Translations under genes and position numbers: made by a program
Notes under the pieces: generated by a model
Told to the model about the DNA's origin: nothing
What the model saw: the letters and a program-made list of their open reading frames with translations, nothing else
The model's database searches: none
In this document: in pieces, positions 6,984-26,881 of the stretch
Layout: every line of letters begins with the position of its first letter
Position numbering within the stretch: position 1 is the stretch's first letter
Assembly (NCBI GenBank): GCA_965247635.1
Contig: CBDFHJ010000007.1
Location: 132,630 to 196,629 of the forward strand
DNA from: Dehalococcoidia bacterium
GTDB lineage: Bacteria; Chloroflexota; Dehalococcoidia; Lucifugimonadales; Australimonadaceae
Length of the DNA: 64,000 bases
Direction of reading: 5' to 3'

Positions 6984-7025
6984 TGTCACCCTTCGTCCCG
7001 ATTGCATCGGGACTCAGAATGACAG
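6984..7025. repeat. REP-like hairpin unit (family A)
   Basis: tgtcacccttcgtcccgattgcatcgggactcagaatgaca is the reverse-complement version of the units at 3519, 46185 and 49378. Confidence 0.65.
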
Positions 7026-7225
7026 GGCAGTGAGCCGGGAACGGCGGTGTATTTCGGGGGCCGCGGCGCTTCCCCTCTTGCCAACTAGGCCTGAGACCAT
7101 TATCATGCGCCCGCCGGATGTCTCCCGTCTCGCTGTCCTGAATCGGGTAGCACACATGGGGTACACTTTGGCGCGATACTTTAGCTGCCTGATCAGAGTG
7201 CAGGAGCATATGGAGGCTTCAGACC

Positions 7226-7498
7226 GTGATGGAAGAGACCAACACTAGGTTGTTCGTAGGTAACCTCCCGTTTCGAGCGTCGCGAGAAGAGCTCGAGGAG
7301 CTGTTCGCTCAGGCGGGGACCGTAGTCTCCGTCCATATCCCCACCGACCGTGAGACCGGACGGCCCCGTGGATTTGGCTTCGTTGAGATGGGTGAGCTCT
7401 CAGAGCTGGAGCGGGCCGTCGAGCTGTTCAATGGCTACTCGATGGATGGTCGGGCGCTGGTAGTCAACCAGGCCAGGCCCCGCCAAGAGCGCCGCTAA
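7226..7498 (+). CDS. RRM-type RNA-binding protein
   Basis: 90 aa with RNP-2 (LFVGNLPF) and RNP-1 (RGFGFVEM) motifs. Confidence 0.85.
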   Translation: MMEETNTRLFVGNLPFRASREELEELFAQAGTVVSVHIPTDRETGRPRGFGFVEMGELSELERAVELFNGYSMDGRALVVNQARPRQERR

Positions 7499-7719
7499 CA
7501 CCCCCTCACGCCAAGGACCTCGTTCCAGCCACTTACAACGCTGGCCAGGATAGCTCTGGCCGGTGGCTGTTGCATTGGAAGGCGCTTGTCGGCCGCAAAA
7601 CACGCCGTGGCTAGCGAACACTCGAAGGCGGGAGTCTGGCACGTGGCAGGGTGGGTCGGGTAGCCGCTCAGGTGAGGGAGTCGGGGATACGGCGCAGGGA
7701 CGGCTGGGCCGCCGACAGG

Positions 7720-8145
7720 CTAGTCGCGGTTAACCCAGCGCCAGAGCCGTTCCAGGGGGTTCCTGCGTCCGGAAGGTGGACCATCCTCTATGCTGCGCCC
7801 GCGCCACCGACGCTCGATGGACCGGCGGGGCCTGGTGAAGAAGATGACGTACGCGGCGATAAACAGGCCAACGCCCGTCCAGGTAAGCGGGCCAGCGATG
7901 CCAGGAATCGCGCTGCGTAGCACCATGGCGGCAAGCAGCAAGACGATTCCGGTAAGCAGTAACCGGCCCGGAGAGATCCCGATTGGGATCAAAGAGAGGA
8001 GTCCTCTGCGGCCCCCTCTCGAGCGTCGCGGTGGGGATGCTTGGTCGGCCGGGCTGCGAACCGGGCGGCCGCCCTTCTCCGCTGGCGCTTCAGCGTTTAC
8101 TTGGTCGAGGATCTCTTCGATTTCCCGCTGATACCGCTGTGACAC
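7720..8145 (-). CDS. hypothetical membrane protein
   Basis: 141 aa with two predicted TM helices (LLLTGIVLLLAAMVL; GVGLFIAAYVIFF). No family was recognised. Confidence 0.4.
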   Translation of the reverse strand: MSQRYQREIEEILDQVNAEAPAEKGGRPVRSPADQASPPRRSRGGRRGLLSLIPIGISPGRLLLTGIVLLLAAMVLRSAIPGIAGPLTWTGVGLFIAAYVIFFTRPRRSIERRWRGRSIEDGPPSGRRNPLERLWRWVNRD

Positions 8146-13641: not shown

Positions 13642-14064
13642 CTATCTGTCCACCAGTTCGATGCGATCGCCGTAACGTCGAAAGTCTGAGACGTTGAACG
13701 TCAATAGCCTGCGCTCCCCATGCGCCAGCATGGTTGCGACGATGTTGGCGTCGTGAATCTGCCGTCCCCCCGCGGGAATCTCTCGACACAGCCCCACGAG
13801 CGATTCGGTCACCACGGGACCGTCCTCGAGTATCTCGAAGCTGCCTATCAGCCTGCTCACGTCATCCAGGGCATCCTCACGGGTGATGGCCACCGTCCAG
13901 GTCTGCGGTCGAGTGACGACGGCCAGGTACTCTCGTATCACCTGACGGCTGATCCTTAGCGGTTCGGGGTCTCGAAAAGCGCGTTCCAAGCTGGCCCTGG
14001 CCGCGTCGTGGTCCGGCGCGCTGGGGACACGGGACTTCACCAGCACGTTCGTGTCTATGAACAT
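13642..14064 (-). CDS. vapC: PIN-domain ribonuclease toxin (VapC-like)
   Basis: The start was set at MFIDTNVLV (ATG 14064). The PIN acidic residues occur in the contexts DTN, EY, D..I and FNVSDF. It lies 7 nt after the upstream antitoxin-like ORF. Confidence 0.75.
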   Translation of the reverse strand: MFIDTNVLVKSRVPSAPDHDAARASLERAFRDPEPLRISRQVIREYLAVVTRPQTWTVAITREDALDDVSRLIGSFEILEDGPVVTESLVGLCREIPAGGRQIHDANIVATMLAHGERRLLTFNVSDFRRYGDRIELVDR

Positions 14065-14071
14065 GGCGGGA

Positions 14072-14476
14072 CTAAACCCTCTCCTCGTAGAGATCCTCAC
14101 GTCTGAGGCTCAGACCTTCCGGCCACACCGCGGTGGGGTGGACGGGCCACGCCTCGTCGAGAGAGAGCCTGGGTATGGGCTTCGTGTGCGTTCGCCGGAA
14201 CAGCAGCATCTCGCCATCCATATCGACCTCCGCCGTCTCCCAGCCGGCGACGCTCCAGGCAAGGGCGTGGCTGTGGCCATTGCCGCCTCTCTGATTTCCC
14301 CACCAGGGCCGGTGCAGCCGTGCGGACGGAGGCAGCTCGAATCCGATGACTGCCTCGACCTCGTTGAAGGAGGTCCTCCACTCCTGCACCTGAAGACTGG
14401 TCAGGTACGTGTACAGTCTCTGGTACTTGCCCCGAATCACCATCTCCAGGTACTTGTCCTTCTGGTCTACGGCCAT
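14072..14476 (-). CDS. chimeric antitoxin-like protein (defence-island-type N-terminal domain + VapB-like C-terminal tail)
   Basis: 134 aa. The N-terminal pattern YQRLYTYL...SFNEVEAVIGFELPPSARLHRPWWGN...HALAWSVAGW recurs in hypothetical proteins near R-M loci. The C-terminal WPEGLSLRREDLYEER resembles the toxin-binding tails of PIN antitoxins. Confidence 0.5.
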   Translation of the reverse strand: MAVDQKDKYLEMVIRGKYQRLYTYLTSLQVQEWRTSFNEVEAVIGFELPPSARLHRPWWGNQRGGNGHSHALAWSVAGWETAEVDMDGEMLLFRRTHTKPIPRLSLDEAWPVHPTAVWPEGLSLRREDLYEERV

Positions 14477-14559: not shown

Positions 14560-14993
14560 GCGCCTAGACAACGGCAACGGACCGGGTAGGGCTCACACGC
14601 ACAGCCCCCCCTCAGAAGGCGTGAGATGCCAGGGGTCGCTGGCGGTGTCACACCCGTGTACAGGAGATCGCACGGGGCGGCAAGTTGCAGTTCGGGCGAT
14701 TCCGTAGCTGAAATCGGGGTGAATGGGGCATCCTGCTAAATCGGAGCGAGCAATTTGATTCCGGTACTCGTTCCACCCCTACTGGACAGTCGCAGCTACG
14801 AAAGTGGACAAAATGGCAGTGGCGTTCGCGGACGTGATTGGAACATGGACTTTGGACTGCGTGATGGGGCATCGGCAGCTACGGATTGGGGAAAGTGGAA
14901 CATCGACGCGTAAGAGAGGCGGATGGGGTTGGAAGAACCGGAGGTCCGGGTGTTAGCAACCAGCAAAAGTGGGACACATTGGGAGCCGAGAGA

Positions 14994-15980
14994 TCAGGGG
15001 CTGGATGGAGGTCTGGCGAGCTCCCTGAGGGCCCTGTTGTAGCGTCGTCGCCGTTCGGTGGTTTGAGCCTTCACCTCCTTCCTGCGTTGTAGGATCTCTT
15101 GCCGTCTTCCCTTGAGCACGTCTGATGGTGTCACGTTGCCCAGAGCCTTGTGATAGCGCCGGTAGTTGTAGTAGCTGACGAAGGCCGCGATAGCGGCCTC
15201 AAGGTCGGCGGGCAACTCATAAGGCACCTGGTTGACGTCCCGTTTGATGGTCTGGTGGTAGCGCTCCAGCTTCCCGTTGGTCTGAGGGTGGAAAGGAGTT
15301 GCTAGGATGTGCTTGATGCCAACCATCCCCAGGTAGTCCCTGAATGCTCTTGAGACATAGCCTGGACCGTTGTCACTCAGCAGCCTGGTGCGGTCTGTGA
15401 CTGGAACTTGGTCCATGCTGGTCGTGTCCACAGCATCCTGGACCACCTCGATGAAGGAGTCGGCCGTCATATCTTGCTGAAGCCTGTGAGCCAGGATGAA
15501 GCGGGAGTAGTCGTCCATAACGGTGACCAGGTAGTAGTAGCCCCACCCAACCACCCTGAAGTATGAGGCATCGGTGGCCCACATCTGGTGAGGTCCTGTG
15601 GTCTTGAGGTGGTACTCCTTCCCCGCGGCCAACCGCATCTCAGGCCTCTTCACTAGGCCCTCCCTGCCCAGGATACGGTAGACGCTGGACTCTGAGACTG
15701 AGAAGCCCTGGTTGTCGGTGATCCCCGCGGCCAGCTGACGGCAGCTCAGCTCTGGCATCTCCCTGGCTGATAACAGGACTGAGCGTTCTTCCTGAATAGT
15801 GAGACGGTTCCATGGTGGCTGATCGCCTCCTGGTCGGTCCTCAAGTCCTTGTTGGTCTTGGCGTCTGAGCCACCGGTAGTAGGTGCTCTTAGGGATGCCC
15901 AGCTCTCTGAGGACCTTTCGCTTGGGGAGGGGAGACGAGGATACTTTGGTAACTACCTCTGCCTTCTCCGGGGCGCTCAT
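14994..15980 (-). CDS. IS3-family transposase OrfB (DDE integrase core)
   Basis: 328 aa with the rve-type motifs WATDASYF, VMDDYSR, LLSDNGPGY and QTNGKLERYH. Confidence 0.9.
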   Translation of the reverse strand: MSAPEKAEVVTKVSSSPLPKRKVLRELGIPKSTYYRWLRRQDQQGLEDRPGGDQPPWNRLTIQEERSVLLSAREMPELSCRQLAAGITDNQGFSVSESSVYRILGREGLVKRPEMRLAAGKEYHLKTTGPHQMWATDASYFRVVGWGYYYLVTVMDDYSRFILAHRLQQDMTADSFIEVVQDAVDTTSMDQVPVTDRTRLLSDNGPGYVSRAFRDYLGMVGIKHILATPFHPQTNGKLERYHQTIKRDVNQVPYELPADLEAAIAAFVSYYNYRRYHKALGNVTPSDVLKGRRQEILQRRKEVKAQTTERRRRYNRALRELARPPSSP

Positions 15981-16384
15981 CCGCTGGTACCGGTGGCGTC
16001 CTGGGGCATGGGGATGGCCGTTTTTTTGAGACGGTACGCCTCCAGCGACAGATCGGCCACTAGCTCCTTGAGTTCCCCGTTCTCTCGCTTGAGTTGCCCT
16101 ACCTCATGCTGAGTGGCGTCCCGAACCGAGTCACGGGTCAACCTCTCCTTGCCCGCCTCCATGAACTCTTTGGTCCACGAGTAGTAGGAGTGGGGCTTGA
16201 TCCCCTCCCGCCGGCACAGGTCGTTGGCTGTGACCTCGCGGCGGAAGCCCTCCAGAACAATTCGGATCTTCTCTTCGGGGGTGTACTTACGTCGGGCAGC
16301 CGCCTTCACTGTGCGGACGAAAGACCTGGTCTGCTCGCTTCGTTCCTCGGCGGCCTCTGCTTTGCTTACTTCTAATTGGGACAC
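15977..16384 (-). CDS. IS3-family transposase OrfA
   Basis: 135 aa with an HTH plus a leucine zipper. It has an ATGA overlap with orfB, and a -1 shift at the A7 run would fuse OrfA to OrfB. Confidence 0.9.
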   Translation of the reverse strand: MSQLEVSKAEAAEERSEQTRSFVRTVKAAARRKYTPEEKIRIVLEGFRREVTANDLCRREGIKPHSYYSWTKEFMEAGKERLTRDSVRDATQHEVGQLKRENGELKELVADLSLEAYRLKKTAIPMPQDATGTSG

Positions 16385-16495
16385 ATCTGCTCCTTTCTGT
16401 GGGTAGCTCTACCCTCATTTCAGGAGCTCACACCACCCTCCGACTCTCGGGTTTTCCTACCCTTATATGTGTCCCATTATCGCTGACGGTCTACA

Positions 16496-18544
16496 CTTGT
16501 CCACGTACATGGTGTGCAGCAGCGGCTCGTCGTAGCCGGTCTGGAACTTGTCCGCGCAGACCAGGAAGCGGTACGGCTCTTCTTGTATCTTGTCGGCTAT
16601 CAGGTTCGATGAGAAGCCGTTGAGGGACGCCTCGGTTACCTTCGTCCCTGCGTATTCGTGCTCACCGGAAAAGGCGACGATTGCCTGGTATGGACTCTTG
16701 CGCTCTGCCAAGTAGTCTTGGATAGCGTGGTAGTAGCGGATGGCGCGCTCGATACTCCCTGTCACCACCATGGCCCTGGCCTGCCCGCCGACCTTCTGAA
16801 GGCCGATGACCTGCTCGTGGAAGTGGTCCACCATGATCTCGGACTTGAGGCGGATGGCATGATCGTTGTTCTCAACATAGCGCCTCAGCTTCTTCGCCGC
16901 ACGCTTCATATCGAACTCCGGGTCCGCCTCCACCGTCTTGACCAGCCGGTAGTAGCTTTCCACCGGTGTGTAGTGCTTCAGCACGTCTACTATGAACCCT
17001 TCCTCGGTTGCCTGCTTCATGGTGTAGGAGTGGTACGGGACGTGCCTGACCTTGTCTCCCTCCGGGATAGGCCGGCCGAAGATCTCCAGCGTCCGATTCT
17101 TTGGCGTGGCCGTGAATGCGAAGTAGCTGGCGTTGGGCAGCAGCTTCTTGCTCTCGATGATTCTGTTGATCTTGTCCTCGGCGGTCTCTTCTTCCTCTTC
17201 TGCACCGGCCTGTCCCAGGGCCATGGACACCGATGCGGAGGTGCGGCCTCCTTGGCTGGAGTGGGCCTCGTCGATGATGATTCCGAAGCTGTGATTACGG
17301 TGTTCGTCCCCGATGGCGTCCAGAATGAAGGGAAACTTCTGCACGGTGGTGATGACAACCTTCTTCCCATCCTGAAGGAAGGTGCGCAAGTCCTTGGAGT
17401 TCTGGGCATGGCCCACCACGGAGCCTACCTGGGCAAACTGCCGAATAGTATCCCTGATCTGCCTATCGAGAATCCTCCGGTCCGTGACTACTATGATCGA
17501 ATCGAAGAGGGGCTTGCCGCTAACCTCGAACCTAATTAGCTGGTGGGCAAGCCAAGCGATGGAGTTGGACTTGCCGCTTCCCGGAGAGTGTTGGACGAGG
17601 TACCGCTTGCCAACTCCTTCGGCCGGCACATCCGTTAGGAGCCGCCGCACTACTTCCAACTGGTGGTAGCGTGGCCAAATTTGCACCCGCTTCTTACGCC
17701 CGGTTTTGTCATCCTTGGTTTCGACAACTTGGGCGTAGTTCTCAATGATGTCGGTGAGGCCTTCTCGGGTAAGGACCTGCTTCCACAGGTAATCGGTCTT
17801 GATTCCGTTGGGATTGGGAGGATTGCCCGCGCCGTCGTTCCACCCCTTGTTGAAAGGCAGGAACCAGGAACTCTTTCCCTGTAGGTGAGTACAGAACTGC
17901 ACCTCGTGATCGTCGACGGCAAAGTGGACAAGGCAGCGCCCCAGCTCGAAGAGCTTTTCGCGAGGGTTGCGGTCTTCCCTGTACTGCTTAACGGCGTCCG
18001 CTACCGTCTGCTTGGTCAGACTGTTCTTCAGCTCGAAGGTGGCCACAGGCAGCCCGTTGATGAAGAGGCACAGGTCCAAGGCAAGCTGGGTGTTGTCCTG
18101 GCTGTAGTGGAGCTGCCTAGTCACGCTGAATCGGTTCTGCCCGTACTGGACCCCGGCCTTCTCGTTCCCCGGCGACGGTGTGCCGTACATCAGGTCAATC
18201 TGGTGCGGACCGTGCTTGACGCCCTTACGTAGCACGTCAATGGTCCCTCGCTTTGCGACCTCCCCTTGCAGCCGGGCCAGGAACTTGCGCCGCGTTGGGC
18301 TGCCCTGGCCCAGGTCCAGTGGCTCGGCGGCAACGGGCTGGGTGTCGTGGAGGAAGGCGGAGAGTTGGGCCAGGTCTATGCAGTACTCCCGGTCGTAATC
18401 TTGTGGGTCTCCGCCGATCCAGCCTACGCCGTAATTGGCCGGACGTTCTGCCACAGCGCCTCCCTGGGCAGGCTCACACGCATGGCCGGCCATGGCGATA
18501 CAAATGAGCCGCTCAAGTCCCTTCTCAGTGGTATCTGTGGTCAC
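16496..18544 (-). pseudogene. hsdR: Type I restriction enzyme R subunit, 3'-truncated by IS copy 2
   Basis: 683 native codons with a GTG start. It has a PD-(D/E)xK context (LDLCLFINGLPVATFELKN), Walker A (SPGSGKSNS), DEAH (IIIDEAHSS) and QTGYDEPLLHTMYVDK. The reading frame then runs into the IS inverted repeat and stops after 10 codons. Motif VI and the C-terminal domain are absent. Confidence 0.85.
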
Positions 18545-18545
18545 G

Positions 18546-18881
18546 CTATCCCTCTTCCATCTCTTGGATCGGGACTTCTCTCAGTTCACCGGGGCGTATT
18601 TCGTTAATGACAGTGCGAATCTCCTCTATACGCGGCTGGACATAGGGCCATGCCGTGGACAGTAGGACGACAATCGCCAGTCGCCTATCTGTGAGGTTCT
18701 GTTGGTATCGCATATTCTGGTCAGTGGTGATGAGGATTTCGTATCCCTCCTGCTCGGCCTCCTCGACTAGGTCCCCATTACCGAGTCCTGACCATCCTCG
18801 CTCCGCTGCCGTATCCACCGAGTGTCCGTGCAGATGTTCTCGAAGCGGCCGAGGCGTTCCCTGGTCCAATAGAATCCTCAC
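18546..18881 (-). CDS. DUF5615-like (PIN/Mut7-C-like) putative toxin
   Basis: The GTG start at 18881 overlaps the DUF433 stop (GTGA). The sequence VRILLDQGTP...GDLVEEAEQEGYEILITTDQNM matches the DUF5615 pattern. The stop lies 1 nt before the hsdR start. Confidence 0.6.
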   Translation of the reverse strand: MRILLDQGTPRPLREHLHGHSVDTAAERGWSGLGNGDLVEEAEQEGYEILITTDQNMRYQQNLTDRRLAIVVLLSTAWPYVQPRIEEIRTVINEIRPGELREVPIQEMEEG

Positions 18882-19105
18882 GGTTCTACGGAAACCTTGA
18901 CGGACTTCGCCGCGTATTCGAGAACAGCTCTGACCTTCCATTCCTCCACGCCCTCGAACCAATCGAGAAACTGTTCTATGGTAGCGCCGCTCTCAAGGTT
19001 CTCGAAAAGGGCGGATACCGGCACTCTGGTTCCGGTGAACACCCAGGCCCCACTCAGCCTGCCGGGCACGCTCTCGACTGCCGTGCACTTTCCCCAGTCC
19101 GTCAT
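18878..19105 (-). CDS. DUF433-like putative antitoxin
   Basis: The ATG at 19105 overlaps the hsdS stop (ATGA). It has the motif GAWVFTGTRVPVSALFENLESGATIEQFL, which is typical of DUF433. Confidence 0.6.
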   Translation of the reverse strand: MTDWGKCTAVESVPGRLSGAWVFTGTRVPVSALFENLESGATIEQFLDWFEGVEEWKVRAVLEYAAKSVKVSVEP

Positions 19106-20562
19106 ACGGTCACCTCGCTTTCCATTGCCAACTCTTCTGGCCATTCGTCGGGGTGGTGCAGGTCTTCGGCCACACTGTCGGCCAATGGGCCGCCCTCGTC
19201 CATAGGCTCTTCATCGTCGGCTTCGTCCGGCAGCAGCGCCGCCGCCTCGCTCACGTCCAGCTTGCCCGTCACCACGTCGGAGATGAGCCGTGTGCGGTAC
19301 TCCTGAAGCAGTTCGATTTGGCGGCGGGCGCGGGCGATGGCGGCGTAGATGATCGCAGTGGCCTCATCAAGATGCTGGACGATAGCGGCCTGTTCGGAGA
19401 GGGGTGGGATAGGTAGGTGCAAGCTAGTTAGCGTTTCGCGGTTAATCTTTGGCATCGCAACTCTGTCGGATTCAAGGACCGACCAAGCTGTGAAACCTTC
19501 CGAGAGCATCAGCCAGAACAGGTAAACATTTAGGAGTGAATTGCGCGGACGTAGCGGGTACATGTCAGCGCTACATAGGCAGTCGGCCGGGGCCACTAAC
19601 ACTTTTGCCAGTGCCGGGCGAATCTTGCTGTAGATCACATCACCGGCTAGGCAAAAGTACTTACCGCTAATTGCTGCCTGTTCGGAAGCTGTCTCTCTAT
19701 ACAGGAGGCGGCCTGTCTTTGACTCGAGGTGATTTGGAGCGATGAGCAGCATTGATGAATACGGTTCAATTTCTGGATCAACCTGCCCTTCGGCTATGTC
19801 TACTTGGCGGGAAAACCGGGTAGTCTCCCAATGCTCCGGCACGTCGCCGAGCCACTCGACGCCGGAGGGCTTGAGGCGGACGTTGGGGTCAAGGCCGCGT
19901 GTGACGGCCTGGTTGACGATGGCCTGCTTCTCCTCTTCCAGCACCGCGATGAGCTTCCGCTTCGCGCTGACGTACCGCCGGATGCGCCGGTCTACGTGGT
20001 CCAGGTAGCGCACGATTGAGGCCTGTTCGGAGAGATGGGGAAGGGACACCCGAAAATACTTGAGCTGGGCACTGTGGACGTGCATGATGGTGATGCCGCG
20101 CCCCATCAGGGACTTCTGGGTTTGAGCCGAATGACAGTCCAACGAGTAGCCCGCAAACTTCGGCTCCATGGGAACTGTTGGCCGGAAGATGATCAAGTCT
20201 CCACCACAGAAAACTTGGGTGTGCATCAAGTTGACTGCGGATTTGCCAATGTCCTCTATGGTCTCACCTGACGTAGGGAAGAGAACGTCGCCTCTATTGA
20301 TTGGCGTATATGCACTAGCCCTCGCTAGCGAAACATAACTCCGTGTCCGCCTAATGAAGTGGGTGTGAGTCGTGTAAAGGTCCCCATACCGAACACAGGG
20401 TATCCCATCGGGGACCTCGTCATCCTTCGTTCCTCCAGAGCCTTTGGAGAAGACGCCAATCCTTCCAAGTTGGACAACTTCCCAGTGCGCCGGCACGTCG
20501 CCGAGCCAGGGGACAGCAGAGGGCTTGTAGGCGGAGTAGCGGTAGATAGCGTTCGCGTACAC
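19102..20562 (-). CDS. hsdS: Type I R-M specificity subunit
   Basis: 486 aa with two target-recognition halves, each followed by a conserved helix (LSEQASIVRYLD...; LSEQAAIVQHLD...). GC is lower in the TRDs. The start is GTG. Confidence 0.85.
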   Translation of the reverse strand: MYANAIYRYSAYKPSAVPWLGDVPAHWEVVQLGRIGVFSKGSGGTKDDEVPDGIPCVRYGDLYTTHTHFIRRTRSYVSLARASAYTPINRGDVLFPTSGETIEDIGKSAVNLMHTQVFCGGDLIIFRPTVPMEPKFAGYSLDCHSAQTQKSLMGRGITIMHVHSAQLKYFRVSLPHLSEQASIVRYLDHVDRRIRRYVSAKRKLIAVLEEEKQAIVNQAVTRGLDPNVRLKPSGVEWLGDVPEHWETTRFSRQVDIAEGQVDPEIEPYSSMLLIAPNHLESKTGRLLYRETASEQAAISGKYFCLAGDVIYSKIRPALAKVLVAPADCLCSADMYPLRPRNSLLNVYLFWLMLSEGFTAWSVLESDRVAMPKINRETLTSLHLPIPPLSEQAAIVQHLDEATAIIYAAIARARRQIELLQEYRTRLISDVVTGKLDVSEAAALLPDEADDEEPMDEGGPLADSVAEDLHHPDEWPEELAMESEVTV

Positions 20563-20563
20563 G

Positions 20564-21259
20564 TTAGTTTGCCCCCGAGGTTAGATCAAACCCGATAGGG
20601 TTCCTTTGAATCAGGTCAAGTGCATGATCAATCGCGGCAGCCACCACGATGCCAGTGTTATCGTAGTACGTGAAAGGTGTCTCGCTTTCGCCAACGTAGA
20701 TTGGTTTGGGCTCATCGTGATAGCCAGAAACGATACCTATAGCAGTAAGTTCATTGCTCCGGTCGTTCACTATCTGGCAAACTACGGGTCCGCCGGAAAA
20801 CCCAGGGTTATTGTGGCCGTCCAGTAATAGTGTTTTCACTTCACCTACTTGAAATGCGGAAAGTATCCCCTTCTTTACCAATGGTATGGGAAAGTTCCTG
20901 TTTAAGTTCCCTCCGTCATTGGTAAGGTCGTAAGGAAATCCCAAGAAGTAAACGTCCTGACTGAGCACTATACCAGCGGTTCCTGTGGGCAATGGGTGCG
21001 TGGGTGAAATTTGCACAGGAGGAGCTAACACTGTCACGTCGATGTCTCCTTGTCCATGCCCCACCAACTCAACGGCAAGGCTCTTCCAAGTGTTTTCATG
21101 CTGTATTTGCAGCAAATTGGGCCCGGCAATGGAGGACACAAAATGGCGGGCGGTAATTATGTATTGTCTGCAATCGACGTCTACCGTAAAGCAAGTGCCC
21201 GTGGACCCACCGTACTGGATGCGAAAGGTACGTTGCAGTATGTTCGTAGTCATTAGCAT
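20564..21259 (-). CDS. cytoplasmic trypsin-fold (S1/Trypsin_2-like) serine protease embedded in the hsd operon
   Basis: 231 aa with no signal peptide. The triad contexts are YIITARHF, GDIDVTVL and NNPGFSGGPVV. It lies 10 nt after the hsdM stop and 1 nt before the hsdS start. GC is visibly lower than in hsdM. Confidence 0.7.
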   Translation of the reverse strand: MLMTTNILQRTFRIQYGGSTGTCFTVDVDCRQYIITARHFVSSIAGPNLLQIQHENTWKSLAVELVGHGQGDIDVTVLAPPVQISPTHPLPTGTAGIVLSQDVYFLGFPYDLTNDGGNLNRNFPIPLVKKGILSAFQVGEVKTLLLDGHNNPGFSGGPVVCQIVNDRSNELTAIGIVSGYHDEPKPIYVGESETPFTYYDNTGIVVAAAIDHALDLIQRNPIGFDLTSGAN

Positions 21260-21269
21260 GTTGCTTTAC

Positions 21270-23387
21270 CTAGCCTTTGACAATCTCCGCCAGCAACCCC
21301 TCCGTCTCCCGCTCCAATGCCAGGATGTCGGCCCGTATCTCCTCCAATGGACGCAGGGGCTGCGGCTTGTAGAAGTGGCGGGTGAAGCTGATTTCGTAGC
21401 CAACCTTGACGCTGCTCGCCACATACCAGGCGTCGGTTGCGTAGGGCAGCACCTCGCGACGGATGAAGGCTTCGACGCCTCCCTCCTCCAGCAACGGCAC
21501 CTGCTCCGTGTCCCGGAGTTCCGGGTCGGGCTCGTACTCCACCACTGTGCTCTGACCGTCCAGGGCCGCTTCGATCAGTCCGCGGATCGGATCAGGTTCT
21601 ACCGCGCCTGGCTTGTTGGTCTTCTTGATGACTGGCGCGGCGGCCTCTTGGCGGGATGCCAACGCCGTCTGTAATAGGTTCTTCCGCTTGGCCGTCAACT
21701 TGACGCCATGCGCGGAGGCATCTGCCACAACGGCCTCCATGAATCGGTTGAAATCGGGGTGAGGTCCGGCGCCCAGTACTGCCGCCACCCGATCAATGAC
21801 GTAGGAGAGTGGCTCTTCCTTTGCGTCACCACAGACGGCCCGGAAGCGCTGGCGATGGTCCGGTGATAGATCGATGGTGAGCCGCAGCGGGCGCTCCACG
21901 GTGACCTTCAAGTAGCCGAAGGCCTCATTAAGGAAGATCTTGGACTGCTCCGTTTCCTCGAAAGCGAGGAACGCATCGCAGATGCGGCCGATGTCCTCGT
22001 CGGATACCTCGCAGTTCTTACTGCCAAGGTTCTTGCGAAGGGGCCTGTACCCCTGTGTGGCATCAATGAGCTGCAACTTGCCATGGCGATGCTCAGGCTT
22101 TCGGTTGCTGAGCACCCAGATGTAGGTGGCAATGCCGGTGTTGTAGAACATGTTCAGCGGGAGGGCGACGATGGCTTCCAGCCAGTCGTTCTCGATGATC
22201 CAACGACGGATGTTGCTCTCGCCCTGGCCGGCGTCGCCGGTGAAGAGGGAGCTGCCGTTGTGCACCTCCGCGATGCGGCTGCCCATCGGTGTGTCCCGCT
22301 TCATCTTGCTCAGCATGTTGGCCAGGAACATCATCTGGCCGTCGCTGGAGCGGGTGATGAGGGAGTAGTCCGGGTCGCCGCCGTGCTCCACGACGAAGCG
22401 CGGGTCCGTGATGTCGGACTTTCCGCCCATGCGTTCCAGGTCGCTCTTCCAGCTCTTGCCGTAAGGCGGATTGGAGAGCATGAAGTCGAACTCACGGGCT
22501 GGGAAGGCGTCGGCAGAGAGGGTGGAGCCGTATTGCATGTTGTCTGCCTCGCCGCCTTCTCCCTTCAAGATGAGGTCGGCCTTGCTGATGGCGTAGGTCT
22601 CAGGATTCACCTCCTGGCCGTACAGATGGACTGACGCCTCCTTGCCTTGTTCCCTGGACAGCTGCGTCAGCGTCTCTTCCGCTACCGTCAGCATCTCGCC
22701 TGTGCCGCACGCGCCGTCATAGACCAGGTAGGTGCCGGACCTGACCTCTTCGGCAACCGGCAGGAAGATGAGCCGTGCCATGAGTTGCACCACGTCCCTT
22801 GGAGTAAAGTGCTCCCCGGCTTCCTCGTTGTTCTCCTCGTTGAAGCGGCGTATGAGCTCTTCGAAGACCGTACCCATGCCGTGGTTGTCTAGGCCCTCCA
22901 GTCTGACGGAGCCGTCCCCGTTCAGCACGGGTACAGGGCTCAGGTTGATCGACTTGTCGAGGAACTTCTCCAGCAGGAACCCCAGCGCATGCGTCTCGAC
23001 CAGCCTGGGAATCTGGTTGCGGAACTCGAACTTCTCCAGGACCTCCTGGATGTTGGGCGAAAAGCCGTCGAGGTACGCCTCGAAGTCAGATCGCAACTGC
23101 TGTTGCCGCCCGCGTGAAGCAAGGTCGCGGAGCCGGAAGTCAGATGTGTTGTAGAAGGCCTGGTCGGAGGCCTGGCGCAGGGCGGCATCCTGATTCGTAA
23201 TGCCTGCGTCGTCTAGCTGGTCCTTCATGCGGAGAACAGCGTCCTTGGTCGGTTCCAGAACTGCGTCCAGGCGACGTATGACGGTCATGGGCAGGATGAC
23301 GTCGCGGTACTTGCCCCGGACGTAGACGTCCCGCAGCACGTCGTCGGCGATGCCCCATATAAAGCTGCTGATGTTCAGGTCGCTCAT
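21270..23387 (-). CDS. hsdM: Type I R-M N6-adenine DNA methyltransferase subunit (long form)
   Basis: 705 aa with an HsdM N-terminal domain, a SAM motif (YDGACGTGEML) and the catalytic MLSNPPYG. The conserved C-terminal tail is GYEISFTRHFY. Confidence 0.9.
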   Translation of the reverse strand: MSDLNISSFIWGIADDVLRDVYVRGKYRDVILPMTVIRRLDAVLEPTKDAVLRMKDQLDDAGITNQDAALRQASDQAFYNTSDFRLRDLASRGRQQQLRSDFEAYLDGFSPNIQEVLEKFEFRNQIPRLVETHALGFLLEKFLDKSINLSPVPVLNGDGSVRLEGLDNHGMGTVFEELIRRFNEENNEEAGEHFTPRDVVQLMARLIFLPVAEEVRSGTYLVYDGACGTGEMLTVAEETLTQLSREQGKEASVHLYGQEVNPETYAISKADLILKGEGGEADNMQYGSTLSADAFPAREFDFMLSNPPYGKSWKSDLERMGGKSDITDPRFVVEHGGDPDYSLITRSSDGQMMFLANMLSKMKRDTPMGSRIAEVHNGSSLFTGDAGQGESNIRRWIIENDWLEAIVALPLNMFYNTGIATYIWVLSNRKPEHRHGKLQLIDATQGYRPLRKNLGSKNCEVSDEDIGRICDAFLAFEETEQSKIFLNEAFGYLKVTVERPLRLTIDLSPDHRQRFRAVCGDAKEEPLSYVIDRVAAVLGAGPHPDFNRFMEAVVADASAHGVKLTAKRKNLLQTALASRQEAAAPVIKKTNKPGAVEPDPIRGLIEAALDGQSTVVEYEPDPELRDTEQVPLLEEGGVEAFIRREVLPYATDAWYVASSVKVGYEISFTRHFYKPQPLRPLEEIRADILALERETEGLLAEIVKG

Positions 23388-23737
23388 TGGTTCGCCATGC
23401 TCCGATAGGCTGCCTTGACTATCTGGTCAAGGGCAACGGCGGCTTCCTCGTTGAGGCGGGGGTCGGAGTGGAGACAGGACGAGATCACCGCGAGGGGCTC
23501 CGGCTCATTCTTGGCGGCGGCGCTCCTGACGAATCGGTCTACGTCCAGTCCCGACCACGCCGCCAAGGCTGCGAGACCGTTGACGTCAGGGTGTTTGCCT
23601 TGGGACATACGGCTCAAAGTGGAGGCGCTGATGCCGCACTCCTCCGCCACTTGCTTCCAAGTGCAATGGCGGGCCTGCCTCTCAGCGTCCAAAGCGGCGA
23701 AGAAGGCGCCGCCGTCGAACCTCGCTGTCTTGGCCAT
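23384..23737 (-). CDS. XRE-family HTH protein (possible controller of the R-M operon)
   Basis: 117 aa with the HTH TWKQVAEECGISASTLSRMSQG. It has an ATGA overlap with the hsdM start. Confidence 0.7.
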   Translation of the reverse strand: MAKTARFDGGAFFAALDAERQARHCTWKQVAEECGISASTLSRMSQGKHPDVNGLAALAAWSGLDVDRFVRSAAAKNEPEPLAVISSCLHSDPRLNEEAAVALDQIVKAAYRSMANQ

Positions 23738-23803: not shown

Positions 23804-23832
23804 ATTATCGCAACCACATGATATGATTGCAA
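23804..23832 (-). promoter_or_regulatory. predicted promoter of the XRE-hsdM operon
   Basis: On the minus strand this reads TTGCAA-N17-GATAAT, with the direct repeat TTGCAAT/TTGCGAT. GAAGGAG precedes the ATG at 23737. Confidence 0.4.
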
Positions 23833-25751: not shown

Positions 25752-26579
25752 TTAGGCCGCCGCGGACTCGGCAGGCGCTCTGTCAAAGAACTGGTCCGGC
25801 GTCATTCCCCCAAGGCTCGAATGGGGCCGTCCGGCATTGTAAAACTCGAAGTACCGCCCGAGTCCAGTTCTGGCTTCCGGGACCGATTCGTAGGCTCTCA
25901 GGTACACCTCCTCGTACTTGACGCTCTTCCACAGCCGTTCGACGAACACATTATCCTTCCAGCTTCCCTTCCCGTCCATGCTGATCTGGATCCCATTGGC
26001 TTTCAGCAGGCCGGTGAAGGCGTCACTTGTGAACTGGCTTCCCTGATCTGTGTTGAATATCTCCGGCGCGCCGTGGCGTCCCAGGGATTCTTCGAGCGCC
26101 TCCACGCAGAAGTCTGCGTCCATTGTGACCGATACCCGCCAGGCCAGCACCTTGCGGCTATGCCAGTCCATCACTGCGGCTAGGTACACGAACCCCCTGG
26201 CCATCGGAATGTACGTGATATCCATTGCCCACACCTGGTTGGGCCTGCTCACCTCAAGCCCGCGCAGCAGGTACGGATACACCGTATGGCCGGGCCGTCG
26301 CCGGCTGGTGTTGGGCTTGCGGTACAGCGCCTCGATGCCCATCCGCCGCATCAGTGTGGCGATGTGCCTACGCCCGGAGGAGAGTCCCTCCTGGCGGAGC
26401 AGGCCTCGCATCATCCTACTGCCTGCAAACGGATACTCAAGGTGCAGCTCATCGATGCGGCGCATCAGTCCGAGACCGGCTTCGCCCACCGGCCGTGGCC
26501 GGTAGTAGATGCTCCCGCGGCTGATGCCCACTGCCTTTGCCTGGCGGGCGAGAGGCAGCTTGTGATCACGGTCGATCAT
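25752..26579 (-). CDS. IS3-family transposase OrfB (DDE)
   Basis: 275 aa with WAMDITYI, VMDWHSRKV, FNTDQGSQF and rve-type motifs. Confidence 0.85.
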   Translation of the reverse strand: MIDRDHKLPLARQAKAVGISRGSIYYRPRPVGEAGLGLMRRIDELHLEYPFAGSRMMRGLLRQEGLSSGRRHIATLMRRMGIEALYRKPNTSRRRPGHTVYPYLLRGLEVSRPNQVWAMDITYIPMARGFVYLAAVMDWHSRKVLAWRVSVTMDADFCVEALEESLGRHGAPEIFNTDQGSQFTSDAFTGLLKANGIQISMDGKGSWKDNVFVERLWKSVKYEEVYLRAYESVPEARTGLGRYFEFYNAGRPHSSLGGMTPDQFFDRAPAESAAA

Positions 26580-26881
26580 CGCCTTGCGCCCGGCAATCCC
26601 GCCTTCGTGAGCGCGGCCTCTAAAAAATCGTTCTCCAACGCAAGCTCACCGATCTTAGCGTGAAGGACCTTCATATCTACCGGCTTTTCAGCCTGCCCTG
26701 TCCCGGCGCCAAATAACTGCGCCGCCCGATCCAGCAACTGGGTCTTCCATTGCGTGATCTGGTTCGGGTGCACATCGAACTGGCTTGCCAGCTCCGAAAG
26801 TGTCCGGTCGCCGCGTACTGCGGCAAGAGCCACCTTCGCCTTGAACTCTGCCGAGTGGTTACGGCGGGGTCGTCTCCTCAT
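26576..26881 (-). CDS. IS3-family transposase OrfA
   Basis: 101 aa with the motifs [14 protein letters not shown] and LASQFDVHPNQITQWK. Confidence 0.85.
   Translation of the reverse strand: MRRRPRRNHSAEFKAKVALAAVRGDRTLSELASQFDVHPNQITQWKTQLLDRAAQLFGAGTGQAEKPVDMKVLHAKIGELALENDFLEAALTKAGLPGARR

Follow-up and report, generated by a model that had tools for sequence, protein, structure and literature searches.

A predicted stand-alone HtrA-like serine protease encoded between hsdM and hsdS of a Type I restriction-modification operon, and the recurrent embedding of its family in methylation-based defence systems

The locus

Here we describe a small serine protease gene lodged inside a restriction-modification (R-M) operon of Type I in a Dehalococcoidia bacterium (Chloroflexota; Lucifugimonadales; Australimonadaceae). 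The whole stretch of DNA analysed, hereafter the window, is 64,000 nucleotides long (GenBank assembly GCA_965247635.1, contig CBDFHJ010000007.1, positions 132,630 to 196,629), and all coordinates below are positions within it. The operon is read from the minus strand in the order small helix-turn-helix (HTH) gene, hsdM, protease, hsdS, a DUF433/DUF5615 gene pair (19144..18546) and hsdR. The first subunit gene, hsdM (21270..23387), is intact and encodes a 705-aa Type I N6-adenine DNA methyltransferase with the Pfam domains HsdM_N and N6_Mtase (PADLOC MTase_I, E=8e-248). Also intact is hsdS (19102..20562), which begins with GTG and encodes a 486-aa specificity subunit (Pfam Methylase_S; PADLOC Specificity_I, E=2e-96).

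The gene for the restriction and translocase subunit, hsdR (16463..18544, minus strand; Pfam HSDR_N, SWI2_SNF2 and ResIII), is truncated. By tblastn with the 1006-aa HsdR of a related locus, L085, whose intact operon encodes an HsdM 88% identical to that of the window, it keeps residues 1-683 of about 1006 and then runs into the inverted repeat of an insertion sequence (IS); the same search found no remnant of the C-terminal part anywhere in the window. The interrupting element (14961..16485, minus strand) carries orfA (16384..15977) and orfB (15980..14994) and has terminal inverted repeats at 14961-14979 and 16467-16485; its IS3-family label is a reading of the transposase-like open reading frame (ORF) translations, not the outcome of a family scan. 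Because hsdM and hsdS are intact while hsdR is truncated by the IS, the Type I system of the window, judged by its genes, probably methylates but cannot restrict.

The protease gene itself occupies 20564..21259 on the minus strand. Both the ORF listing and the raw sequence give an ATG start at 21259, an end at 20564 and a product of 231 aa. Its ATG follows the hsdM stop codon by 10 nt (spacer TAGgtaaagcaacATG) and its stop codon is separated from the hsdS GTG start by 1 nt (TAAcGTG), in agreement with the gene boundaries given in a preliminary description of this DNA. Given these 10-nt and 1-nt spacers, the gene is very probably co-transcribed with hsdM and hsdS and translationally coupled to them.

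The protease domain

The 231-aa product matches Pfam Trypsin_2 (PF13365) over residues 21-161 with a score of 41.7 bits, the cutoff being 27.6 (E=2.4e-10), so that the profile search proposed in the preliminary description yields a match above the gathering threshold. The three motifs quoted there as a catalytic triad in canonical order (YIITARHF, GDIDVTVL and NNPGFSGGPVV) are all present, and the residues concerned, H39, D74 and S155, are invariant across an alignment of 23 diverse homologues (50-86% identity); the catalytic aspartate is D74 (DVTVL), not D72. When a profile of the homologue alignment was compared with HtrA-family structures, the triad aligned with the HtrA catalytic residues (IVTNxH / DLAVL / GNSGGP).

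An AlphaFold2 model of the protein (pLDDT 86.5, pTM 0.85) is nearly all beta. Foldseek returned 776 PDB matches at E<=1e-3, the best of them being the catalytic domains of DegQ, DegP, DegS, MucD and AlgW (E~1e-9, TM~0.6), in keeping with a double beta-barrel chymotrypsin fold (clan PA); the preliminary description had named the lack of a structural match to S1 proteases as grounds for abandoning its assignment, and a match was found. A single-sequence search against PDB sequences gave only noise (methionine aminopeptidase, E~1). Since Trypsin_2 is matched above threshold, the aligned triad is invariant and a confident model resembles DegS, DegP and DegQ, we regard the protein as a putative protease consisting of an HtrA/DegS-like S1C catalytic domain.

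The protein appears to be a stand-alone, cytoplasmic enzyme. No PDZ domain was matched in Pfam, and the chain ends at residue 231, directly past the catalytic domain. There is no hydrophobic N-terminus or membrane segment, the peak Kyte-Doolittle hydropathy over 19 residues being 0.97, which bears out the earlier statement that signal peptide and transmembrane segment are absent and is the reason for placing the protease in the cytoplasm. The family further has a beta-hairpin of unusual length towards the C-terminus, at residues 171-209; a helix comes next and then NPIGF, a motif that is nearly invariant (N220, P221, G223). This region might serve as an arm for oligomerisation, as an autoinhibitory tail or for docking.

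Related loci and evolutionary signals

The nearest relatives of the window protease come from ENA metagenome assemblies and a Dehalococcoidia metagenome-assembled genome (MAG), and the order hsdM-protease-hsdS is kept in relatives whose proteases are 62-87% identical to it. L085 (87%) has an intact operon of the order HTH-hsdM-protease-hsdS-DUF433-x-hsdR, with an HsdR of 1006 aa. In L084 (67%) the protease again lies between hsdM and hsdS with the 1-nt spacing; the TAAcGTG junction is common to the window, L085, L084 and L081. L087 (62%) shows the same arrangement and 1-nt spacing with an ATG start of hsdS (TAAcATG), and in L015 too the protease is found inside a Type I hsd operon. Two further relatives have other surroundings: in L086 (64%) the protease is within a DUF499/DUF1156 (Hma-type) system, and in L089 (60%) it stands alone between a Rieske gene and rpsO-pnp. 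The 705-aa form of HsdM has a long C-terminal extension, and in L087 and L084 the 3' stretch of hsdM that codes for it is disrupted (6985-7658 and 7757-7987, respectively). A toxin-antitoxin pair (a 91-aa protein and a PIN protein) has inserted in the former, while in the latter the frame is broken and a C-terminal ORF of 76 aa is left; the extension may be dispensable, or may be an insertion hotspot.

A different situation is found in L081-L083, where an intact protease (86%) is flanked by a transposase in the place of hsdM and by a 166-aa hsdS stub. The L081-L083 copy has a dN/dS of 0.157 despite its decayed hsd flanks, and dN/dS lies between 0.13 and 0.27 in every comparison made. Purifying selection persists even where the hsd flanks have decayed, so the protease gene is functional and is maintained by selection for itself.

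These loci bear on a proposal made in the preliminary description, which had drawn on the anticodon nuclease PrrC and suggested that the protease could be a guarded effector, held inactive by HsdM and HsdS (and perhaps HsdR) until a phage anti-restriction protein frees it and abortive infection follows. PrrC is indeed embedded in a Type I locus and guarded there, and guarding of this kind therefore does occur (Payne et al. 2024, bioRxiv 10.1101/2024.01.29.577857). The position within the methylase and specificity core, with a tight coupling kept in the 62-87% relatives, would suit a guarded protein, as would the faster divergence of the protease (62-67%) than of HsdM and HsdR (77-83%) in orthologous operons, which is expected of a protein that faces phage proteins. 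Yet a toxin whose guard is gone should be counter-selected, and the 86%-identical copy is intact and under selection with hsdM gone and hsdS reduced to a stub; in the window itself hsdR is already broken. Nor does the protease match PrrC in PADLOC.

The GC content of the protease gene is 0.493 (0.53 at third codon positions, GC3) against 0.612 (GC3 0.81) for hsdM. The preliminary description was right about this deficit, which it took to suggest separate acquisition, but the deficit is no sign that the gene was acquired recently in this window: it is a trait of the whole family, GC being below that of the flanks in 77/89 loci (median -7.4 points) and correlated with host GC (r=0.71), and the hsdM-protease-hsdS order is older than the split between operons with HsdM proteins 81-88% identical. 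The deficit marks an accessory, horizontally moving gene rather than a recent event here. In the orthologous operons HsdM is 81-88%, HsdR 77-83% and the protease 62-87% identical, and the synonymous divergence of the protease is sometimes below and sometimes above that of its flanks (hsdM, hsdR). This variation in both directions points to recombination and a mosaic past, as for hsdS.

Extent of the family

A word-indexed search gave 2,500 proteins at E <= 0.001 among 3,288 candidates, and the best 120 listed are nearly all about 230 aa long with Trypsin_2 (or Trypsin) as the sole recorded Pfam domain. An exhaustive profile search gave about 907 clusters (50% identity) at E<=1e-30; among the best 150, nearly all are 210-300 aa and no fusion recurs. 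Members from different phyla are 42-54% identical, share 40 invariant residues and are spread patchily over more than 15 phyla. In phage and plasmid collections there are four distant matches of 32-34% identity, which say little on how the gene moves; three temperate gut phages carry such a homologue at their accessory end, and a Rhodococcus plasmid has one next to IS256 and a recombinase.

No NCBIfam model matches the protease, and none of the HEC or PDC models in PADLOC v2 does; PADLOC-DB v2.0.0 as a whole gives only weak protease-domain similarity, to LmuA (E=2.8e-6) and RT-Protease_XI. The portions of the published embedded-gene supplements that were searched contain no trypsin or PF13365 entry, and our literature search turned up no earlier account of Type I, Hma or BREX-related systems with an embedded S1 protease, so that the preliminary description's remark that no such Type I system was known to it still stands. 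The family is an uncharacterised, stand-alone protease family.

A striking share of the members in loci L001-L080 come from sponge-associated or marine uncultured lineages, and very few from cultured isolates; record titles name Poribacteria, SAR202/Dehalococcoidia, Spongiisociaceae, Poriferihabitaceae and Nitrospinota. This bias towards uncultured lineages may explain the family's absence from defence catalogues based on RefSeq.

Genomic contexts

To place the family in its surroundings we used an unbiased sample of 80 loci from GTDB species-representative genomes, which provided 74 usable protease copies; genes of Type I, Hma and Type IIG systems were mapped around them, up to 8 kb away, by homology together with Pfam and PADLOC. 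Such genes lie within 8 kb of the protease in 17-18 of the 80 loci, a lower bound given the 8-kb limit, the homology-seeded detection and some short contigs. Seven of the 74 usable copies are near Type I genes, seven near Hma genes, three near Type IIG/PLD genes and 57 are solo, meaning that no R-M or Hma seed gene was matched within 8 kb.

Several of these copies are not merely close to a defence system but lie within one. Five of the 74 are embedded in Hma in the order HmaA-protease-HmaB-HmaC (L033, L034, L048, L056 and L069), and two more adjoin Hma genes. Two others are embedded in Type I systems with other gene orders: hsdR-protease-hsdM in L046, and hsdM-hsdS-TIR-protease-pAgo-SIR2-DUF3800-hsdR in L071 (3124-16313, a Nitrospira MAG with a short pAgo and SIR2 partner). 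One copy abuts hsdR directly after a complete Lamassu system: in L018 (5047-14662, a Thiotrichaceae MAG) the Lamassu genes (DUF4297 LmuA and LmuB), the protease homologue and hsdR-hsdS-hsdM run head to tail on one strand. A further four of the 74 have a Type I system within 1-6 kb. Three have Type IIG/PLD-helicase genes within 8 kb, and in L001 a Type IIG methyltransferase gene and a PLD-Snf2 helicase gene directly flank the protease. The preliminary description had held that an absence of recurrent linkage to hsd genes would speak against its proposal; the linkage does recur, both in the relatives at 62-87% identity and, in other Type I arrangements, among distant family members (L046, L071, L018 and L040).

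Embedded copies are always on the strand of the host system and mostly overlap or nearly abut their neighbours. A tree built quickly by neighbour joining places the Type I-embedded copies in at least four lineages and the Hma-embedded copies in at least three, both interleaved with solo copies, and embedding has thus occurred repeatedly and independently. Hma is a rare system, with 1,485 systems in 234,099 RefSeq genomes (Payne et al. 2024, bioRxiv 10.1101/2024.01.29.577857). Hma genes are found within 8 kb of about 9% of the protease copies and in less than 1% of genomes, the baseline coming from RefSeq and the surveyed loci being MAG-rich; because Hma is so rare, this proximity is not chance.

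Solo copies show no conserved partner, either in BLAST clustering of all ORFs in the 80 loci or in Pfam and PADLOC scans of 116 immediate neighbours, and a two-gene system with a fixed partner was dropped as an explanation. Their neighbours are mostly metabolic and housekeeping genes, plus a handful of defence matches. We also considered the protease as a Lamassu effector, given its weak match to LmuA and the LmuB directly upstream in L018, and rejected this reading because that locus has a nuclease-type LmuA (DUF4297) of its own and, among the loci surveyed, LmuB occurs in L018 only.

Possible function

On these observations the protease belongs to a horizontally mobile accessory family that has landed repeatedly in several methylation-based anti-phage systems. 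The accessory character is seen in the GC deficit, the mosaic divergence and the locations in phage and plasmid accessory regions, and the company kept by the family (Type I, Hma, Type IIG, Lamassu, TIR and pAgo-SIR2) makes its embedding a non-random association with defence. The protease is also autonomous: no fusion recurs, solo copies have no conserved neighbour, the L081-L083 copy is intact beside a transposase and an hsdS stub, and the window copy is intact although hsdR has been inactivated by an IS.

By analogy with embedded defence genes, we suggest that the protease may be an autonomous, latent second-line or abortive-infection module, the likeliest of the readings considered, to which we give roughly even chances. 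The protease would be made constitutively with the methyltransferase through translational coupling, and its latency would stem from an intrinsic property akin to the allosteric, ligand-induced loop ordering of HtrA-type enzymes. A phage-derived cue would switch it on, and the active enzyme would then cleave a conserved host or phage protein and halt phage production, by analogy with Lit or with the protease effectors of Lamassu, Avs and retron systems, families of which it is not itself a member. Residence in R-M-type operons would bring co-regulation, co-transfer and layered defences and would involve no physical dependence on Hsd proteins.

Several observations weigh against a latent anti-phage module. 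About 70% of the copies lie among housekeeping genes (PanE, thiolase, MFS, rpsO/pnp), and the context Fe-ADH-PanE-protease is syntenic across Accumulibacter-like species; both would fit a protease with no part in defence, and the count of solo copies (57 of 74) is itself inflated by short contigs and by the homology-seeded detection of defence genes. The conservation of the family across phyla is unusual for an immune protein, and its resemblance to PADLOC entries is confined to a shared protease domain. DegS without its PDZ domain is constitutively active, and latency of a bare catalytic domain is accordingly hard to explain.

The same observations would favour a protease that serves housekeeping or quality control in the cytoplasm, or a neutral hitch-hiker, which now and then lands in accessory operons where intergenic sites are permissive. 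Its strong sequence conservation, its metabolic and housekeeping neighbours and its synteny in Accumulibacter-related genomes would all suit such a role, and HtrA-type domains classically act in protein quality control. Chance cannot, however, explain repeated, independent, same-strand and tightly coupled insertion into rare systems, the excess of Hma being the clearest case, and the consistent GC deficit and the patchy spread over more than 15 phyla, with occurrences in phage and plasmid accessory regions, are atypical of a core housekeeping gene. We therefore think a role outside defence unlikely.

Every system that truly embeds the protease, be it Type I, Hma or Type IIG with PLD-Snf2, has both an N6-adenine methyltransferase and an SF2 translocase, which raises the possibility of a purpose-built post-translational controller or sentinel of translocase-plus-methylase systems (Type I, Hma/DUF499-type and Type IIG-helicase), with solo copies acting in trans. 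Such a controller might clip the motor subunit against self-restriction, as a portable substitute for ClpXP, or might sense and respond to the anti-restriction proteins that disable these systems; in either version we find it doubtful. In a more specific form, which we regard as quite unlikely, the protease would regulate its host system by responding to an under-methylated chromosome with the clipping of the motor or nuclease subunit (HsdR, HmaA or the PLD-Snf2 helicase) or of a different one, or would destroy anti-restriction proteins. It would then be a built-in equivalent of restriction alleviation by ClpXP, whose degradation of HsdR is an established escape of Type I systems from self-restriction (cited in PMC12255303). 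Translational coupling with hsdM and hsdS would set the level of the protease relative to the complex, and the uncharacterised M48 metallopeptidase that is a conserved neighbour of Type I systems offers a precedent for a link between protease and R-M genes. Regulation of this kind sits poorly with the 57 of 74 usable copies that have no such system within 8 kb and with selection on the protease after loss of hsdM and hsdS (L081-L083) or of hsdR (window). The protease is moreover conserved across phyla, while its supposed substrates are unrelated outside the helicase core, and the family also neighbours Lamassu, TIR and pAgo systems, which are free of methylases. As a matter of general knowledge, a 231-aa protease without an unfoldase cannot processively degrade a folded protein of 1000 aa.

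Guarding of the protease by the Hsd complex in the manner of PrrC is very unlikely, because most copies of the family are solo, others reside in mechanistically different systems (Hma and Type IIG) or in mixed defence islands, PrrC being almost exclusively Type I, and the protease survives under selection after hsd loss, and on the same grounds we disfavour the other suggestion of the preliminary description, a processing or quality-control factor for the Hsd subunits.

Comparison with known systems

That operons of Type I, Hma, BREX and DISARM systems can carry embedded, independent defence genes has already been published (Payne, Hughes, Fineran & Jackson 2024, bioRxiv 10.1101/2024.01.29.577857), a literature that the preliminary description missed. 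According to the same study, seven of nine tested Hma-embedded candidates gave phage defence, 96.7% of embedded genes share the orientation of the host operon, and most embedded families more often occur non-embedded. Examples in Type I systems are TgvAB in the Type I operon of V. cholerae VPI-2 (PMC11411939) and DarTG2 in a Type I island of enteropathogenic Escherichia coli (PMC12255303).

The protease resembles these embedded genes (HEC-01 to HEC-09 and PDC) in lying between genes of a methylation system, on the same strand and tightly packed: between Type I genes in the window, L085, L084, L087, L046 and L071, and between Hma genes in L033, L034, L048, L056, L069 and L086. Like them, the family occurs in Hma and Type I alike and is more often non-embedded than embedded, and the DUF433/DUF5615 pair resembles them as a second embedded unit in the window operon. 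The described families differ in kind, being ATPase-nuclease pairs, GmrSD-like enzymes, RNases and toxin-antitoxin modules; among the published families covered by our search, none is a protease. Position differs as well, in that TgvAB, DarTG and PrrC all adjoin hsdR whereas the protease described here lies between hsdM and hsdS.

With PrrC of EcoprrI the protease shares a place inside a Type I hsd operon and the production of a potentially self-harming enzyme alongside the R-M proteins. PrrC, however, is an ABC-ATPase fused to an anticodon nuclease and masked by the R-M complex, while the protease has only Trypsin_2 and Trypsin matches, is found with Hma and Type IIG systems also, and survives the loss of hsd genes.

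Proteases serve as immune effectors in the protease-type LmuA of Lamassu, in retron/UG reverse transcriptase (RT)-Protease class XI and in the trypsin domains of Avs1, Avs2 and Avs4 (PMC12642450; bioRxiv 10.64898/2026.08.25.746987). LmuA and RT-Protease_XI are the nearest PADLOC similarities of the protease, the match to LmuA spanning only positions 3-171 of a 425-position model. In LmuA, Avs and RT-protease systems the S1 domain is fused to or paired with a sensor (LmuB, a STAND ATPase or a reverse transcriptase), and often with a cleavage-activated toxin, whereas the family described here consists of the catalytic domain alone, and no gene for a sensor or substrate is conserved in its vicinity. 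Another parallel is Lit of the e14 prophage, in which proteolysis as an anti-phage effector activity is carried by one gene: Lit senses a phage peptide and then cleaves EF-Tu. Lit differs in being a zinc metalloprotease.

In structure and profile the best matches are HtrA, DegP, DegQ and DegS (MEROPS S1C), which have the same order of the triad and the same GxSGGP serine motif. The protease differs from them in its lack of a PDZ domain, signal peptide or anchor, in its low identity (about 17-22%), and in its long C-terminal hairpin and conserved NPIGF. The M48 metallopeptidase and ClpXP are likewise proteases tied to Type I systems, the former genetically and the latter functionally through the degradation of HsdR. 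Both are of another catalytic class and fold; the M48 gene is located downstream of hsdR, and ClpXP, a housekeeping machine, has its genes elsewhere.

Accessory genes embedded in R-M-type operons and proteolysis as an immune effector activity are thus already known, and what is new is a protease family that lacks a description in the literature searched and lies outside PADLOC v2 and NCBIfam. That annotation tools miss it is likely due to its occurrence for the most part in lineages without cultures, such as sponge symbionts, Chloroflexota, Poribacteria and Acidobacteriota, and not in RefSeq isolates. If the family is anti-phage, it would bring to the immune repertoire of bacteria a very compact protease of one domain and without a sensor, would extend "guilt by embedding" to a family that both PADLOC v2 and NCBIfam miss, and would pose mechanistically new questions, namely how a bare HtrA-like domain is harmless in the cytoplasm and what its target is. 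If it instead regulates R-M systems, it would bear on how Type I-like enzymes outside the ClpXP-controlled families spare their own host. The recurrent HmaA-protease-HmaB and hsdM-protease-hsdS cassettes are ready-made constructs for testing.

Neighbouring genes

The operon is headed by a small gene (23384..23737, minus strand) for an XRE-type HTH protein of 117 aa, whose stop codon overlaps the hsdM start. The protein matches HTH_31/HTH_3 in Pfam near the gathering score (E~1e-5) and, weakly, the RstR family (E=6e-4). A promoter-like site lies upstream of the gene at 23832..23804; the promoter and terminator scan is compatible with a single transcript starting upstream of the HTH gene, a compatibility too weak to serve as evidence. 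The HTH gene is a probable regulator of the operon, and the RptR and C-protein regulators of R-M operons hold an analogous position (PMC12255303).

Between hsdS and hsdR, on the same strand, a gene for a DUF433 protein (18878..19144; Pfam DUF433, E=8e-14), a putative antitoxin-like partner, is paired with one for a DUF5615 (PIN-like) protein (18546..18962; Pfam DUF5615, E=1.5e-4, slightly under the gathering score), whose true start is probably downstream of the TTG called. From its domains the pair resembles a toxin-antitoxin module, and it is a second embedded unit of the operon. It is also present in L085 and in L030, where the DUF5615 homologue is 60% identical, and in L011 (8866-9415) it is found directly downstream of an otherwise solo protease.

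Past the IS in hsdR lies a VapC-family PIN toxin gene (13642-14100, minus strand; TIGR00028, E=8e-18, 65.0 bits against a cutoff of 73.6), and the 134-aa ORF that adjoins it (14072..14476) gave no family match. On the other side, about 2 kb upstream of the operon, there is a second IS3-type element (25752-26881, minus strand) with orfA at 26881..26576 and orfB at 26579..25752, so that the R-M locus is bracketed by insertion sequences.

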